A stretch of 64,000 nucleotides of DNA, taken from assembly GCA_963701855.1 (NCBI GenBank), contig CAVPBK010000006.1, positions 352,001-416,000 of the forward strand, read 5' to 3'. The DNA is from Nitrospirota bacterium (GTDB lineage: Bacteria; Nitrospirota; Nitrospiria; Nitrospirales; Nitrospiraceae). Position numbers: made by a program. The stretch's first letter is position 1; each line of letters starts with the position of its first letter. Shown here in pieces: positions 12,801 through 36,800 of the stretch.

Positions 12801-15800
12801 GATCCGGCTCAAACTGGGACGCCATTCCATACCCAGACCGGAACCATGCCGAGGCTAAGAACCACTGCCGCTAGCAAGAATCGGTGCGTGTTTCATGACC
12901 AGTCTCCCTCATCAGTCAGTCTCGATCGATCAACTTCGTCCCGTTCTTACCTATCTCACGAGCAAAGGAAATGCCATTTGCTCATATGACAGTTGGGGCT
13001 TATCTTTCAAACAGATATGGACCATAAACTAACGGAGCGGTTGCGTGGCCAATGCGCAGCCCGTCCTAGGATTCAAGGGAACGAGGCTAAGGTCCTGTTT
13101 GTTTAGATCTTTCCACGGCGACAGGTTGTCTACGTCTGGACAGATTGTTCAACAATATACGTACAGGATCAGCTCGACCACGCGACGATTGATTGGACGG
13201 TGTCCACCGATGGACCCTGACTGAAAAAGAAAGCGCCAGGCGCAGTGGACGGCTCGATGGTGCCTTCAGTTTTCAGAGTGGTAGCAATGTGGTAACAGAG
13301 GCGATTATGTTGGACTTGACACGCCAACCAGAGGCCCTCTGGTATTCTTTTGTGCAGAATCATTTCTTCTCGGACCTGACTCACACTGCTGACTTTATAA
13401 TAGCTTGGCTCGCCATCACACTGTTCGGGACGATGATTTCGCGGTTCTCCGAGGTCTTACTAACCGTGTAGCCCAGCGTGAGGCCTTCTATCGTGCCGGT
13501 TTGAAAGCCAACCGGAACCATCAGTTGAACTGGGTCATCGATTTGGAACGGCCCTTGTGTTTGGGTGGTGACAGACGTGTCGATATATTTGTATAGTAAA
13601 TCCCTAGATATGCGCGATGTGCGCACTGTCACCGGTTTCACGACGTACTATCTCAATCAGACATTGTCTGGGGAAAAGGAGTCGAGCACCATGAAACCAC
13701 AAGTGATCGTGGCTGATGACCATCGACTTGTCGCCGAAGGTGTCGTCAAGATCTTGGAGAAGGAATACACTGTAGTCGCGACCCCCACAGACGGACGCGG
13801 CTTCATCGAATCAGTTGAAAAGTTTCGCCCCGCCCTTGCCTTAGTTGATATTTCTCTCCCTCAGTTGAATGGACTGGATGCCTGCCGCCATGTGAAAAAG
13901 TCCTGTCCCGAAGTCAAGATCATCATTCTGACGATGCATTCGGAACAGCATTTTGTGAACGAAGCCTTTCGTGTCGGAGTCGAAGGATACTTGCTCAAAA
14001 CCTCAGTCGCTGATGAGCTCTTGTTTGCTGTGAAGGAAGTGCTGAAGGGATCCACGTACATTTCGCCGGTGATCGCGCAGGGTCTGGTCGATCAGGCCTT
14101 GGAATCGTCGACAGATTCTCAGAGGCGACCGATACCCACCCCGACCGTCACGCTTAGTCTACGACAGAGGGAGGTCTTGCAACTGGTGGCAGAAGGCAAG
14201 TCCAATAAGGAAATCGCGTCCGCGATCAACGTGACGGTGAAAACTATCGAGTTCCACAAGGCCAGAATCTCGAAGGAACTCGGTGTCCGTACCACCGCCG
14301 AACTGACGAAACAAGCCATCTCCCTTGGACTCATCGCCCCACCTGAGACGCCTCAGGCCCCAAGTTAGCCGAATTGCTTTCTCCGAAAGTCCAGTGACCA
14401 GGATCGGATGGAGCATTAGAGCTTGGTCAGCCCCTGTGCCAATGCAAATTTGGTGAGATCGGAAGCGGTCTTCAGACCCAGTTTTTTCACGAGTCCCGCC
14501 TTGTGAAACTCGACTGTCTTCACAGAGATGCCCATCGCTGTGGCAATGGTCTTCGCCGAAAGACCATTGGCAAACATCCGCAAGACCTCCTGCTGCCGCG
14601 GCGTCAATTGGATGTTGTATCCTTCGGGACGGATCCACGGATGCTCGATCGATTCTCGCACGTCCGCCGCGACTTCGGCAGAGACGTACCGGCGATCACT
14701 CATCACGGTACGGATGGCGGTCATGAGCTCGGTCGAAGCGGATTGTTTGAGCACATACCCATTTGCCCCCTTCTTGAACCCTTCGCTGACATAGAAGGGT
14801 TCGCTGAGCATCGTCACGAGAATAATTTTTACACGGGGGAGTTTCCCTTTGAGCAATTGGATGAGATCAAACCCGTTCATGTCGGGCAATGAGACATCCA
14901 ATAGCACAACGTCCGGAGCCGCCCTTTGAGCCTTCTCCAGAAGTTCCGTCCCGTTATGGGCTGTCCCGACAATCACTGTGTCGTTGGCGAGTAACTGTCG
15001 GAACCCTTCCAACACTAAGGAATGATCGTCGGCAATGAACACTCGCGGTTGATACATATCTGCTCCGGAGATCAATCTATGTCGCTGCGTCCGAGACGTC
15101 CAACGACCACCAGCATGGCACCGTCCCAGCGTCCAGATGTTATCACATCGCCAGATCTCACAACCTATGGATTACCCCAGTTCAAAGGGAGTCGATCGAA
15201 CGAAATGTAACATTCTAGACAACAAAGTAGATTCTTCCCCTAATGCGAGAGCCTGCGCGACAGGTCCGAGCACCTTCAACGTAAAATCCCTTCTCAGCGT
15301 AGTCCCACTACATCTCGCTTGTGAGAAGACCCTCAACCCAGCAAAAAAGAAGCACATGCGCAAGGTAAGCCCCCTAATCAAGAAATGACATTGCTCTCGG
15401 CCTCTCCGCCGCCCACTTTGTGGAGTGCCACATCTTCACAACTCTGGCAAGTTCTCCCTTTCGTCTTTACGTACAGTTTTTCTTCGACTCGCTGACGGGC
15501 GACCACGTTTCTCGAAGGCCTCTGTCCTAAGAGTATGGATAGAATTCCGAATCGCAACTCGGGTTACTTTCGCATCGGGTTCGTTGTTTCTGCCTGTAAC
15601 ACAACAAAAGCCACGGTCGATACGTTCGCCAAATTCACCTCGAGCACCAGCCCGGAGGAATGGATCAATGGTGACGGCGTCATAACCGACAGCCAAAAGG
15701 CCCGGCTGTTTACTGCAGTCGCGTTTGAGAATCTGGAGCAGGACATTGCACGTGGGAATGGAGAATATCTCACATCGTTAGCCGTGTTGATGAAGGTTCC

Positions 15801-33800: not shown

Positions 33801-36800
33801 ATTGTCCTTGTAATATGGTGCCCGATGGTACCCAGCGCAGTTTGCTATGCCGAAAAACAGGTCCTGCTGATTCAAGAGTGGAGTCAGTCATACCGCTGGC
33901 TTCACCTCAGTGACTGGCATCAGCTTTTCGAATCGACAGCGCATGATTCTCATAGTTTATCTTTGCCTCAATACGCTCACCCTTCTTGATTTCTCCGATC
34001 ATCTGGGTCGTTTTATCTGTGTGCAGACGGACTTCCTTCCCGTCTTTCACTTTGACGAAATAGTTTCCGTCTTCGACACGGAACAGTTCGCCCTTGATCG
34101 TCTTGGCACCTTCTGCATGACTACTTCCCTGCTCTTCGTTCATTTGTATGTCATCATCAGATTGGAAACCTTGCCGATCGGATTGGGCGTCGATTTTCAC
34201 CAGGTCTGATGGCGCAGGGGCATGTTCTGCCTGCGCTGCGTTGGACAGCCCGAGGCATAGCAACAATCCACAGGACGAGCACCAACGATTTTTGGAATGG
34301 CCTCCTCGGTTAGATGTAAGCGCATAGCTCTACCTATATGCTGCCGAGAGAGTTTTTAGACCTATGAAATTTCCTAGTTTTTGGCGACAAGTCCCTAGGC
34401 CGGGAACCAGACGAGAAGGCGAATAAATGACGTGCCCCCTCAGGGAGGCAAGGGCTTGCTAGGGGGTGCAGAGCTGCCTGGGTTCGTTTTCACCGTGGCA
34501 GGAGGAGCTGTTTCGGGATCGATCGCCATGTTGGGATCGACTTTCGGAGGAACGACTGCCGAACGAGGGTCAGGAACCGTCTGAGGGCGTCGTTCAATGC
34601 CCGGGTCTATACGTGAAGGTGGAAGCCTACTTGGTGATTGAGGATGTTCAGGGAGGACCTCATTAGGTACCGAGGGTGATGGAGTGACATCCGCTGACCA
34701 GGCTGGGGAAACCCAAGCGGCCATAATCAACAGTGGTGCTAGCAAGAAGAAGATCATACAGGCCTCATCACTATTCCTAAGAAATGCCCGCTGAAATCCC
34801 GGACGGGAAGAGCGGTCAAACCATGAGCGCGCATCATCGCGTGGACATCGTGCAGCAGGTCATTCTCATTGCAATAGACCGGATCAGGGGTCATGACCTT
34901 GTGAATGGGTTTTGACGAGGGCGCATTCGCCAGGGCAATATCCCGGTCAGAGAGCGTGCCGAACAGCGTGCGACCGCGACAGACGATAACCGCGCCGACG
35001 CCCAACGACTTCATCAGCCGCACCGCTTCTCCGATCTCAGTCAAGGGGGTGACGGTGGTCACGGAACGGCTCATAGCATCTTTGACGCGGATGCATTCGT
35101 GTGGAAGGACTCCCAATTGTTCTGCTTCGGTGGATTCGAGATAGATACCCGAACGCTTCTGTCTTTGTGGACGATCGACGCTTGCACGTTTTGACTGCAT
35201 GACAGTCCCCGGCAATCGATTTTTGTCGACTTTACCCATCGCTCAATCCCTATCTTCCCTATCTATTGCCCTATGGCCAAGACAGACGCCAATCCTCCAG
35301 GAACTTGTACGGTCATAGAGTACTGTGGTGAGACAGTTCACAACACTGGAAGAATCCCTAGGTTCGGTTGACGGATCTGGTGTTGTGCCCCAACTAGAAT
35401 GCAGACAGGGAAAGTCAGGCACCTGGGTGCTGCGCGTAATTCCTATTCCGCATTCGCGAGGGACATCGGCGCGTTGAAATGGTTTCTCTAGATTGTTCTG
35501 GGATCGTCAAGAACATCCCCCCCGCAGATGCACCCTCTAGCGCATCGGATATGGCGATGACTTTGAGATTAAAAGTTCCTGATCTTCTCTCACACATTTC
35601 AAGACCGTTCATTCCAGGCCTGACAATACCGGTGATGATTTAGGACCTGCTTCTTCAAACCTAGGGAATATCCTAGGTTCACGAAACGAAATCTCAATAT
35701 AGTAATTCGTATACAGGAGGTGACTGCCATGAGAGATATACGTTCGCTCTTTGATGCAATTCTATATGTACTAGGTGGAGTCGTAGCGATCGGTATCTTG
35801 GGTACGACGTTGCTCCCATAGTCACAATCCTCGCCCACCGAATATCCGATACGGTTTTCCGGATTTCTTTTGTCAACAATTCGAGGATCTTCTCATGATC
35901 GCTCTCGATATTTTGTGCCAATCCGAAGTGCACCGGTCTGTTTCCCTGGACTCGCCTCCTCCATCGATAACATCCCGATTTTCGCCACCTATCGTGACTC
36001 AGTCCCTAACTCTCCCAGCGTGACATTCAAAGCGCATACCTTCGATACCACCAGTACGAACCAACTTCGGCCTACTCTTTGTCATTTCTGCGATCGGTGA
36101 CCGCTTGTGCCGAGAAAATCGACAGCGCGTGATTTTGATCGTTCACCTTCGCCTCAATATACGTGCCCGGCTCGATGTTTCTTGCCTTCATGGTGGTGAG
36201 GTCGATATGTACTCGCATCTCGTTGCCGTCCTGTCCCTTGATGAGGCAGTCATTGCCTTCGACGCGCAATACTTCTCCCTTAATCGTCTTGCCCCCTTTT
36301 GACTGGCCGCCTTCCGTATCCTTCATTTGTTTTTCCCCAGCCTCTTGAACTCCTTGCCTCCGATCAGATTGGTCGGCTTTCAGTCTGTCTACAGTCGAAG
36401 CCGCATTATCTGCCTGCCCGGCAGTGGACAGTCCAAGGCACAGCAGGAACTCGCAGGACACGACCCCGACGACTTTCGGAAGAGAAATCATGGTAGCCTC
36501 CTCGGTTAGATGAAAAAGTACGACGAGGGATATAAGGGCTTCCGCGTTCCCGCCATGGTTGAAGATGGTTGATCACGGATATTCGACCATCTGTCATCGA
36601 ATTCCAGGGTAGGATTAGGCATTCATTGGAATCGCCGAATATAAGGCTTCCGAGGACACCATGAGTTCATCCCGGCATGCCCTGCAACGGTCCGACTTCC
36701 ATATCAACGTCCCGTAAACAATTCTCAGCCCAGTGATAGATATCATGTGAGCTAAGATGAAGGCGCATCTGCCGCATCCGCTCTCTTCGTTCGTTCTCCG

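Follow-up and report, generated by a model that had tools for sequence, protein, structure and literature searches.

The closest described systems are all built on response regulators. RcsB is described as recognizing the half-site TTAGGAA in flhDC through K180 and S184 (PMC5829831), and Rcs stress targets such as osmB and osmC are named together with RcsB heterodimers (PMC4125116, PMC2887963), one of whose partners, RcsA, has an N-terminal domain that is not a typical receiver (PMC4125116). The heterodimer of the response regulators BldM and WhiI occupies a non-palindromic 16-bp site in which one half agrees with the palindrome of the homodimer, and response-regulator heterodimers are called rare in bacteria (PMC4125116). 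Base contacts of DosR/DevR are assigned to Lys179, Lys182 and Asn183 (PMC4082495), and NreC of staphylococci, also a response regulator, binds a palindrome rich in GC (PMC8139620).

The probable operator described here was followed from a 64,000-nt stretch of a Nitrospirota genome (the window; the genome is termed G000) to the genomes of its family. Two convergent response-regulator genes in the window, RRA (g01701) and RRB (g01702), emerge as its probable main readers.

A directional motif at a fixed promoter distance

The genome-wide survey's note had described a mostly non-coding 16-bp palindrome about 23 nt before a -10 box, and spacer controls, shuffles and TAnnnT counts confirm that the motif and its spacing are real. 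Throughout G000, CTAGG-N6-CCTAG occurs 13 times, and other spacers from 0 to 15 give 0–2 occurrences each, except N7 with five. CTRGGR-N4-YCCTAG has 25 sites, 24 of them non-coding, and none with spacers of 2, 3, 5 or 6. A matrix scan returned 64 matches at 14 bits (57 non-coding; column shuffles 7–50, with 2–8 non-coding) and 51 at 16 bits (49 non-coding; shuffles 2–10, with 0–3 non-coding), against a backdrop of about 26% of the genome outside confident gene calls. The match in haoB, already suspected of being incidental, indeed lies within the haoB reading frame. Reversed patterns in the gapped searches often gave as many matches as the pattern or more; because their composition differs, they were not taken as a null, and other spacings and free positions were used instead.

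Of 116 flanks in G000, 16 have a TAnnnT box that starts exactly 23 nt past the 16-mer, where about 1.2 would be expected, and 27 have one at 22–24 nt. When 58 sites from the loci of 20 relatives were scored with the G000 matrix, 33 had a -10 box at 22–24 nt, compared with 3.4 expected. Moreover, a model trained solely on the relatives and applied to G000 yielded 44 matches (41 non-coding) at this distance, whereas eight other spacings in the same scan yielded 11–20 (9–14 non-coding). In G000 and relatives alike, the operator thus stands at a fixed distance and abuts the -35 region, which supports the class II activator geometry proposed earlier; judged from the -10 box spacing, its centre would fall near -43.5 relative to the transcription start. 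The 16-mer is very probably a class II activator operator of the NarL family. An RpoS-like sigma factor is present (331 bits; cut-off 378.7), but the base preceding the -10 box is C at only 18 of 52 sites. A soil metatranscriptome shared 0.07 of the sequence words, and the 25 assembled contigs placed from it gave no information on transcription starts or levels.

The sites cluster in IS-rich islands, with 16 of 58 crowded into C9:172-211 kb. Some six groups have their flanks in common as duplicated promoter segments, so that independent sites are fewer than matches. Such clustering could suggest that the sites are left over from a mobile element, a repeat or a target of recombination that gathers in horizontally acquired islands. 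That origin is scarcely credible, since only 11 flank matches were found among 58 sites, two of them merely overlaps, and the remaining flanks are unrelated, unlike those of a REP, MITE or IS end. Furthermore, the -10 box distance is fixed in and out of sample, and the motif is kept before orthologous genes although its spacer letters vary.

Oriented by its -10 box, the 16-mer reads CTAGGG-N4-(T/C/G)CCTAG before a sigma-70-type promoter with a poor -35 region. It is directional and not the perfect palindrome first described: the distal G6 is present in 48 of 52 oriented sites and its proximal counterpart in 15 of 52. Five genomes with the RRA/RRB pair show the same bias (distal 80/105, proximal 30/105), whereas sites at the same spacing in 31 pair-less genomes are symmetric (10 and 8 of 34; both comparisons partly tallied by hand), so polymerase geometry alone does not impose it. 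As a predictor of which gene is faced, the asymmetry scores only 14 to 5.

The window, its regulators and predicted targets

Both RRA and RRB carry a receiver and a LuxR/GerE helix-turn-helix (PF00072 and PF00196) above cut-off. Their phosphorylation pockets are invariant: D53/T81/K103 in 36 RRA sequences (row L029, with a stop within its coordinates, was left out of the alignment) and D54/T82/K104 in 37 RRB sequences. The genes are convergent in all 60 loci fetched, and a site of at least 10 bits precedes RRB by no more than 330 bp in 50 loci, and RRA in 17. A HisKA_3-type core occurs in 23 of the 60 loci (12–20 kb each) and a poly-HAMP kinase near the pair in only two. The survey's label of MctR-type regulators fails, as the scores of 161 and 170 bits fall short of the 300-bit cut-off (NCBIfam NF052445). 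Neither are these RcsB (RRA 70, RRB 87 bits; NF008098 cut-off 235), nor is the poly-HAMP protein an RcsC-type kinase (264 bits; NF008099 cut-off 920).

Table 1. Operator sites, promoters and genes along the 64,000-nt window
Feature	Position	Strand	Remarks
Site, 21.7 bits	11307..11322	+	No clear -10 box; site at like place in relative G151
85-aa mini-protein gene	11431-11688		Faced by 11307 site; start read from strong ribosome-binding site
RRA (g01701), NarL/FixJ-family response regulator, 225 aa	13691..14368	+	Helix KT(V/I)EFHK-TR
RRB (g01702), NarL/FixJ-family response regulator, 213 aa	14416..15057	-	Helix KTVEFHK-AG/AN
-10 box TAACAT, RRB promoter	15137..15142	-	22 nt from site
Site before RRB	15165..15180	-	Predicted autoregulation
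Weak, doubtful site, 14.6 bits	16041..16056	.	No -10 box; no called gene faced
CRP/FNR-like regulator	17135..17926	-	Rejected as reader; possibly a target
78-aa Cys-containing mini-protein	17968..18204	-	Behind 18296 site; no Pfam family
Site, detected solely by oriented model	18296..18311	-	-10 box TAGTAT 18267-18272, 23 nt
Strong site, 23.5 bits, before kinase operon	18754..18769	+	-10 box TATACT 18793-18798, 23 nt
Poly-HAMP hybrid histidine kinase, 2201 aa	19207..25812	+	12-13 HAMP stretches, HisKA, HATPase, 3 receivers
Receiver-PAS3-histidine kinase, 832 aa	25842..28340	+
Single-domain receiver, 151 aa	28349..28804	+
Receiver-HisKA_3-HATPase-receiver kinase, 599 aa	28801..30600	+	Candidate phosphodonor for RRA/RRB
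DUF1328, two CsbD, split ferritin/Dps, superoxide dismutase (SOD)	30663..33695	-	Stress genes without own site
78-aa gene	33907-34143		Faced by 34362 site; same direction as SOD-Dps-CsbD block
Site, 23.4 bits	34362..34377	-	Imperfect -10 TATAGG at 23 nt
CBS-domain protein	34754..35239	-	Predicted target
Site before CBS gene	35346..35361	-	-10 box TACTCT 35317-35322, 23 nt
Strong site, 24.3 bits	35661..35676	+	Imperfect -10; duplicated promoter at C8:6427
30-codon hydrophobic ORF	35729-35821		Faced by 35661 site
otsA-like trehalose-6-phosphate synthase	36667..38136	-	In island, without upstream site

The kinase-operon orthologue of N. moscoviensis also has an oriented site upstream. Stress-type genes are indeed among the predicted targets, which comprise glgX-treZ, DUF1328, CBS, DUF2934 and DUF6496 genes, kinases, receiver-only proteins and many mini-proteins, but the claim that the motif defines a general-stress regulon is too wide. 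The otsA, SOD, Dps, BON, YtxH, both CsbD and the window's DUF1328 genes have no site of at least 10 bits within 400 bp upstream, the best score there being 9.6 bits before one CsbD; some of these genes may be transcribed through from upstream promoters. Two further targets named in the survey's note are lost. The promoter near trehalase, once oriented, points the opposite way, to a DUF6496 gene, and the gpgS site is unsupported, with no TAnnnT at 22–24 nt.

Candidate readers of the operator

Among 251 family genomes, 82 are motif-rich (a count of at least 10), as is N. moscoviensis. The motif is therefore not restricted to comammox bacteria, and it is far commoner in relatives than the earlier figure of 0–2 in 43 other genomes implied. 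In all 127 genomes of the phylum outside the family, the count is 0–2. Richness follows the pair: where an RRB orthologue is present, 75 of 99 genomes are motif-rich, versus 7 of 152 where it is absent, a difference that holds within each of four genera, although related genomes are not independent and all P values are accordingly overstated. Four of those seven exceptions are less than 90% complete, and seven genomes with RRB have counts of 4 or less. RRA occurs in 98 genomes, RRB in 99 and both in 97, so 97 of 100 keep both. The RRA/RRB pair is thus likely to be the main reader. The proposal of a NarL-type reader stands in this form, with the evidence favouring g01701 and g01702 together where the note had named g01702. 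The other regulator proposed, g00097 (x00093), is rejected: 26 of 79 genomes with its orthologue and 56 of 172 without are motif-rich, so the two are not associated.

A 5-6-5 dyad could instead serve a CRP/FNR-family activator, such as the product of the gene at 17135-17926. CRP sites have the same 16-bp shape with a 6-nt spacer, eight such paralogues are present in G000, and a crude association exists (motif-rich 44/93 with CRP, 38/158 without). Presence of the pair accounts for this association: motif-rich genomes make up 36 of the 50 that carry the pair and lack such a CRP, compared with 5 of the 44 that carry the CRP and lack the pair. CRP class II sites are centred at -41.5, unlike the position estimated here, and a CRP/FNR homodimer does not explain a change that tracks the RRB helix. 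We consider a reader of this family very improbable.

That change is one-sided. Five genomes have the RRB helix KTVLFHKTS; among their sites, the distal G5 is kept at 95 of 122 and the proximal C12 at 39 of 122 (hand tally), while two Glu-type genomes have 51/63 and 46/63, respectively. A scripted count on stored loci gave C12 at 4/19 (Leu type) versus 66/88 and G5 at 17/19 versus 84/88. The Leu-type RRB is a single event nested within genus g37, which keeps Glu in RRB, shares with the Leu lineage a Lys-to-Arg change in RRA and is already intermediate at C12 (18/33 genome-wide, 2/7 in loci); hence the loss of C12 is not attributable to Glu-to-Leu alone. An RRB homodimer as sole reader is rejected, since distal G5 is kept where RRB has lost its Glu, if that Glu reads the base.

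An RRA homodimer could read the same operator and regulon, with RRB as a co-regulated modulator, an anti-activator or a protein with a separate job, and with the weak proximal half reflecting overlap with RNA polymerase. RRA has its recognition-helix Glu in 60 of 60 loci, in keeping with the retained distal G5, and it too changed in the lineage losing C12, genus g37 being intermediate. RcsB homodimers are themselves asymmetric on DNA (PMC5829831). The symmetry of same-spacing sites in pair-less genomes, however, speaks against this reading, a change in a homodimer should affect both halves, and RRB is almost always retained alongside RRA. We regard the RRA homodimer as unlikely.

In favour of a heterodimer, a complex model of RRA with RRB scored 0.64, versus 0.00 for the best of three controls (116 of 157 solved complexes attain the mark for such models, as do 2 of 215 mismatched pairs), and at least 91% of contacts are common to its runs, with a partner pLDDT of at least 86; because NarL-type dimers have already been solved, the score may show likeness only, including likeness to homodimers.

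A broader pool of NarL paralogues with the KTVEFHK helix (g00097 type, RRA and RRB) might share the box as homo- and heterodimers, each with its own kinase, so that no dimer owns the regulon. The same box adjoins the genes of solo regulators with this helix, in pair-less Nitrospiraceae and in Acidobacteriota, and a site adjoins the g00097 cluster in G000; paralogue homodimers may therefore serve some sites. As a general account the pool is improbable, given that the g00097 orthologue does not predict richness (odds ratio 1.0), that 3 of the 46 genomes having this orthologue and lacking the pair are motif-rich, and that five Acidobacteriota genomes hold only 0–4 oriented matches each. A reading of G6 by the Arg of RRA is also rejected: this residue is also present at the corresponding helix position of g00097, and sites beside such solo genes mostly lack G6.

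We infer, with slightly better than even confidence, an RRA-RRB heterodimer in which RRA would occupy the distal half-site and RRB the proximal one beside RNA polymerase. Phosphate would reach the pair from the island's cytoplasmic poly-HAMP, PAS and HisKA_3 hybrid kinases, under what may be osmotic, desiccation or starvation stress, and the pair would activate some 30–50 promoters in G000, with positive feedback through those of RRB and the kinase operon in addition to the other predicted targets. To this explanation as a whole, a mixed NarL-type dimer on the operator within a kinase-fed stress switch, we assign a probability of a little under 0.6. Tentatively, the system may be a horizontally mobile general-stress switch of the Nitrospiraceae, an obligate heterodimer of two canonical phosphorylatable paralogues descended from a solo KTVEFHK-type ancestor. 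This switch would read a directional operator and combine the inputs of two kinases as an AND gate, and its half-site code would be legible from natural helix variants.

Comparison with described systems

Nitrospira are drivers of nitrification in soils, filters and treatment plants. The operator, its candidate readers and kinases would offer a testable stress switch, as well as a sequence marker that separates family genomes having the programme from those lacking it. Searches at the level of literature listings returned nothing on this regulon or a like regulator pair, nor a described general-stress regulator for Nitrospira.

DosR/DevR of Mycobacterium, whose structure 3c3w was matched at E 6e-27, is likewise of the NarL family, and its contacts are spaced i, i+3, i+4, as in K-T-V-E-F here if the alignment is right. 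It places about 50 genes under one box. Unlike the pair, DosR/DevR is a single regulator with heme sensor kinases, a different box and no heterodimer. NreC has a half-site, spacer and recognition helix that we take to be very similar to those here, but controls nitrate respiration via an Fe-S kinase.

RcsB of Enterobacteriaceae, with its heterodimers (RcsA, GadE, BglJ), resembles the pair as a NarL/FixJ regulator ending a multistep phosphorelay (proposed here), with a similar half-site and stress targets. RRA and RRB differ in that both are complete, canonical response regulators whose convergent genes are inherited together, and in their poly-HAMP, PAS and HisKA_3 hybrid kinases. BldM-WhiI of Streptomyces is alike in combining two response regulators on a 16-bp non-palindromic site, the heterodimer here being predicted. 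However, BldM and WhiI are orphan, atypical developmental regulators, whereas RRA and RRB keep their phosphorylation residues and lie adjacent, among kinases and stress genes. If the prediction is true, a heterodimer whose partners are both canonical and inherited together would be a new arrangement, one that works naturally as a gate for two inputs.

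Position and direction of the operator

In the genome under study (4.30 Mb in 15 contigs, the window being C6:352001-416000; its HAO and HaoB genes are consistent with a comammox organism), CTAGG-N6-CCTAG has 13 occurrences against 0–2 for the remaining spacers, N7 excepted (5). Three of the five N7 matches (contig C6: 229819, 871316 and 871440) resemble tRNA ends. The pattern CTRGGR-N4-YCCTAG has 25 matches, none at spacers of 2, 3, 5 or 6, and 24 of the 25 lie outside genes as called with a hexamer-based caller that is not reliable for short genes. With a symmetric matrix there are 64 matches at 14 bits (57 non-coding) versus 7–50 (2–8) in ten column shuffles, and 51 at 16 bits (49 non-coding) versus 2–10 (0–3). 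These scans reproduce the counts in the genome-wide survey's note; the haoB match, which that note thought probably incidental, is coding. About six groups of sites share their flanks and represent duplicated promoters. The densest island, C9:172564-211370, holds 16 of the 58 non-coding sites in 39 kb; it also contains IS remnants, glgX-treZ and trehalase.

The site keeps a fixed distance from a -10 box. Among both flanks of the 58 non-coding sites, TAnnnT stands at offset 23 in 16 of 116 (about 1.2 expected) and at offsets 22–24 in 27, and the better -10 side is the gene-facing side in 12 of 13 sites with one gene facing. Out of sample, 58 sites from 20 relatives' loci have 33 -10 boxes (3.4 expected). 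Moreover, a gapped site and -10 pattern has 21 matches in the genome at spacings of 22–24 and 5–8 at six alternative spacings. When an oriented model is built solely from 119 sites of relatives, with approximate -10 weights, it finds 44 (41 non-coding) at 22–24 and 11–20 (9–14) at eight alternatives. Taking the -10 box as -12 to -7, the 16-mer would cover -51 to -36, centred at -43.5, which with the fixed spacing bears out the class II activator position proposed earlier.

The operator had been described as a palindrome; it is directional. With each site aligned to its -10 box, 48 of 52 carry G at position 6, whereas C at the mirror position (11) is found in 15 of the 52 (23/23 and 7/23 for the genome under study alone). 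With both positions left free, five further pair-bearing genomes have G6 in 80 and C11 in 30 of 105 matches (hand tally of every match listed). On its own, the asymmetry predicts the facing gene by 14 to 5 only.

The regulator pair as probable reader

The site is very probably read by RRA and RRB (g01701 and g01702), two NarL/FixJ-family response regulators among the 19 LuxR-type domains of this genome. Asp, Thr and Lys are intact in both. Their scores fall under the cut-offs for MctR, NarL and RcsB, and the MctR part of the earlier label is not supported. With RRB orthologues taken at E of at most 1e-60, chosen where scores thin out, 75 of 99 family genomes with RRB are motif-rich (10 or more matches) versus 7 of 152 without it, a contrast also present within four genera; the genomes are related, so such co-occurrence counts are patterns and not clean tests. 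Two unpublished genomes (G006, G076) count within the 251 only as motif-poor and pair-less, and without them the contrast is 75/99 versus 7/150. RRA has an orthologue in 98 of the 251 genomes, together with RRB in 97. The pair is convergent in 60 of 60 loci fetched, which were chosen from RRB/RRA matches, and a site scoring at least 10 bits precedes RRB in 50 and RRA in 17. Two pairs occur in G212 (L023, L024), one Leu-type and one Glu-type (see below), and two near-identical pairs in G203 (C10, C23). In three loci from other Nitrospirales (L096, L108, L100), two such regulators stand in tandem, with sites between or after them.

Other candidates fare less well. The paralogue g00097, put forward in the survey's note, is unassociated with motif richness (26/79 with an orthologue versus 56/172). 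A CRP-like gene shows a crude association, but the pair accounts for it: 36 of 50 genomes with the pair and no CRP-like gene are rich, versus 5 of 44 with the reverse. This CRP/FNR-like type has eight paralogues in the genome (about 60% identical), one at window 17135-17926, and occurs in 93 of 251 family genomes.

Polymerase geometry could in principle impose the asymmetry. However, 31 genomes have a solo paralogue and no detected pair. Their 34 matches with the usual distance to the -10 box, tallied by hand and partly due to chance, are unbiased, with G6 in 10 and C11 in 8, which ties the asymmetry to the pair. One lineage points the same way. Its RRB helix reads KTVLFHKTS (Leu-type), not KTVEFHKAN (Glu-type); with G5 and C12 free, it keeps distal G5 in 95 of 122 matches while proximal C12 is down to 39 (hand tally). 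Two Glu-type genomes (two of five tallied; among the matches listed, 150/181) have G5 in 51 and C12 in 46 of 63. With G5 fixed, C12 is found in 20 of 77 (Leu-type) versus 81 of 104; in a scripted count of stored loci, Leu-type versus Glu-type, C12 is 4/19 versus 66/88 and G5 17/19 versus 84/88. The base contacts named in the available parts of the sources are Lys179, Lys182 and Asn183 for DosR (PMC4082495) and K180 and S184 for RcsB (PMC5829831); aligned with these, the RRB Glu would sit at i+3, a base-reading place. This evidence is weakened because the Leu-type lineage is a single event nested in genus g37, which is itself intermediate (C12 18/33; 2/7 in stored loci) and has the same Lys-to-Arg change in RRA.

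A model of the RRA–RRB complex scored 0.64 (best of three controls, 0.00), passing a mark that is attained by 116 of 157 solved complexes and also by 2 of 215 mismatched pairs, with contact agreement between runs of at least 91% and partner pLDDT of at least 86; the pass may show likeness only, because NarL-family relatives have been solved. On balance, an RRA–RRB heterodimer is slightly the likelier reading.

Inputs, outputs and range

A site at 18754 precedes genes for a poly-HAMP hybrid kinase, a receiver-PAS kinase, a lone receiver and a receiver-HisKA_3 hybrid. HisKA_3 kinases usually partner NarL-type regulators. Among poly-HAMP kinases, the fungal group III kinases and Streptomyces OsaA serve in osmotic sensing, a role that the kinase here may share. 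A HisKA_3-type core occurs in 23 of 60 pair loci and a poly-HAMP kinase in 2.

Pfam and NCBIfam searches covered 118 of the 164 genes that neighbour sites in the 20 regions fetched. Carbohydrate genes include glgX-treZ, trehalase, two glucosyl-phosphoglycerate synthase-like genes, a glucose/sorbosone dehydrogenase and a polysaccharide operon. Additionally, there are DUF1328, CBS, two DUF2934, DUF6496, DUF3015 and low-affinity iron permease genes, four receiver-only genes, many transposases and many family-less short proteins. Stress-type targets are supported, but the proposed general-stress regulon is too wide: in the window, otsA, SOD, Dps, BON, YtxH, both CsbD and DUF1328 have no 10-bit site within 400 bp, so the box marks one arm of the stress programme. 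A 203-aa ferritin-like protein at C7:32523-33134 has motifs matching the split ferritin/Dps gene.

Features of the regulator island and related loci
Feature	Location	Strand	Description
RRA	window 13691-14368	+	convergent with RRB (tail to tail), 40% identical
RRB	window 14416-15057	-	convergent with RRA (tail to tail), 40% identical
IS3-type and IS110-type transposases	window 7025-9848		immediately left of island
Ferritin/Dps-like gene	window 32348-32943	-	two ORFs (116 + 68 aa) matching two halves of PF00210
30-codon hydrophobic ORF	window 35729-35821	+	strong ribosome-binding site, directly behind strong site; promoter duplicated at C8:6427
Second signalling cluster (L141)	C1:96-105 kb		sites on both sides; CheB/CheR-PAS fusion, PAS-HisKA_3 kinase, g00097, lone receiver, protoglobin-HisKA protein
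RpoS-like sigma factor (L198)	C5:169596-170564		best match rpoS, 331 bits, under 378.7 cut-off
Second RpoD-like factor	C6:728063		418 aa
Acidobacteriota loci	L085-L087, L105, L122, L133, L135, L139		solo KTVE(F/Y)HK regulator and box match within 4 kb

The operator and its regulon are real, family-wide but patchy. Counting both strands, at least 10 matches occur in 82 of the 251 family genomes, spread over nine genera, and no more than 2 in 114; in the 127 genomes from the rest of the phylum the count is always 0–2. The regulon had been assigned to comammox Nitrospira. It is not comammox-specific, because the named record of N. moscoviensis, a canonical nitrite oxidiser, has the pair and 23 oriented sites, including one before RRA and one before the poly-HAMP kinase. 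In Acidobacteriota the same box adjoins solo KTVEFHK regulators, yet the genomes concerned have only 0–4 oriented matches. Genera are intermixed in the RRB tree, which suggests that the island may have been transferred between them.

Comparison with known systems

A literature search, with subscription journals and supplements outside its coverage, found no paper on the regulon or the pair. The closest systems are RcsB with its partners, such as GadE-RcsB (PMC2887963, available in part), BldM-WhiI, DosR and NreC. BldM-WhiI has a 16-bp asymmetric site, according to the available part of PMC4125116; the NreC comparison rests on a portion of PMC8139620 in which the box letters are not given. The RRA/RRB system works like these systems and, by membership tests, is a member of none.
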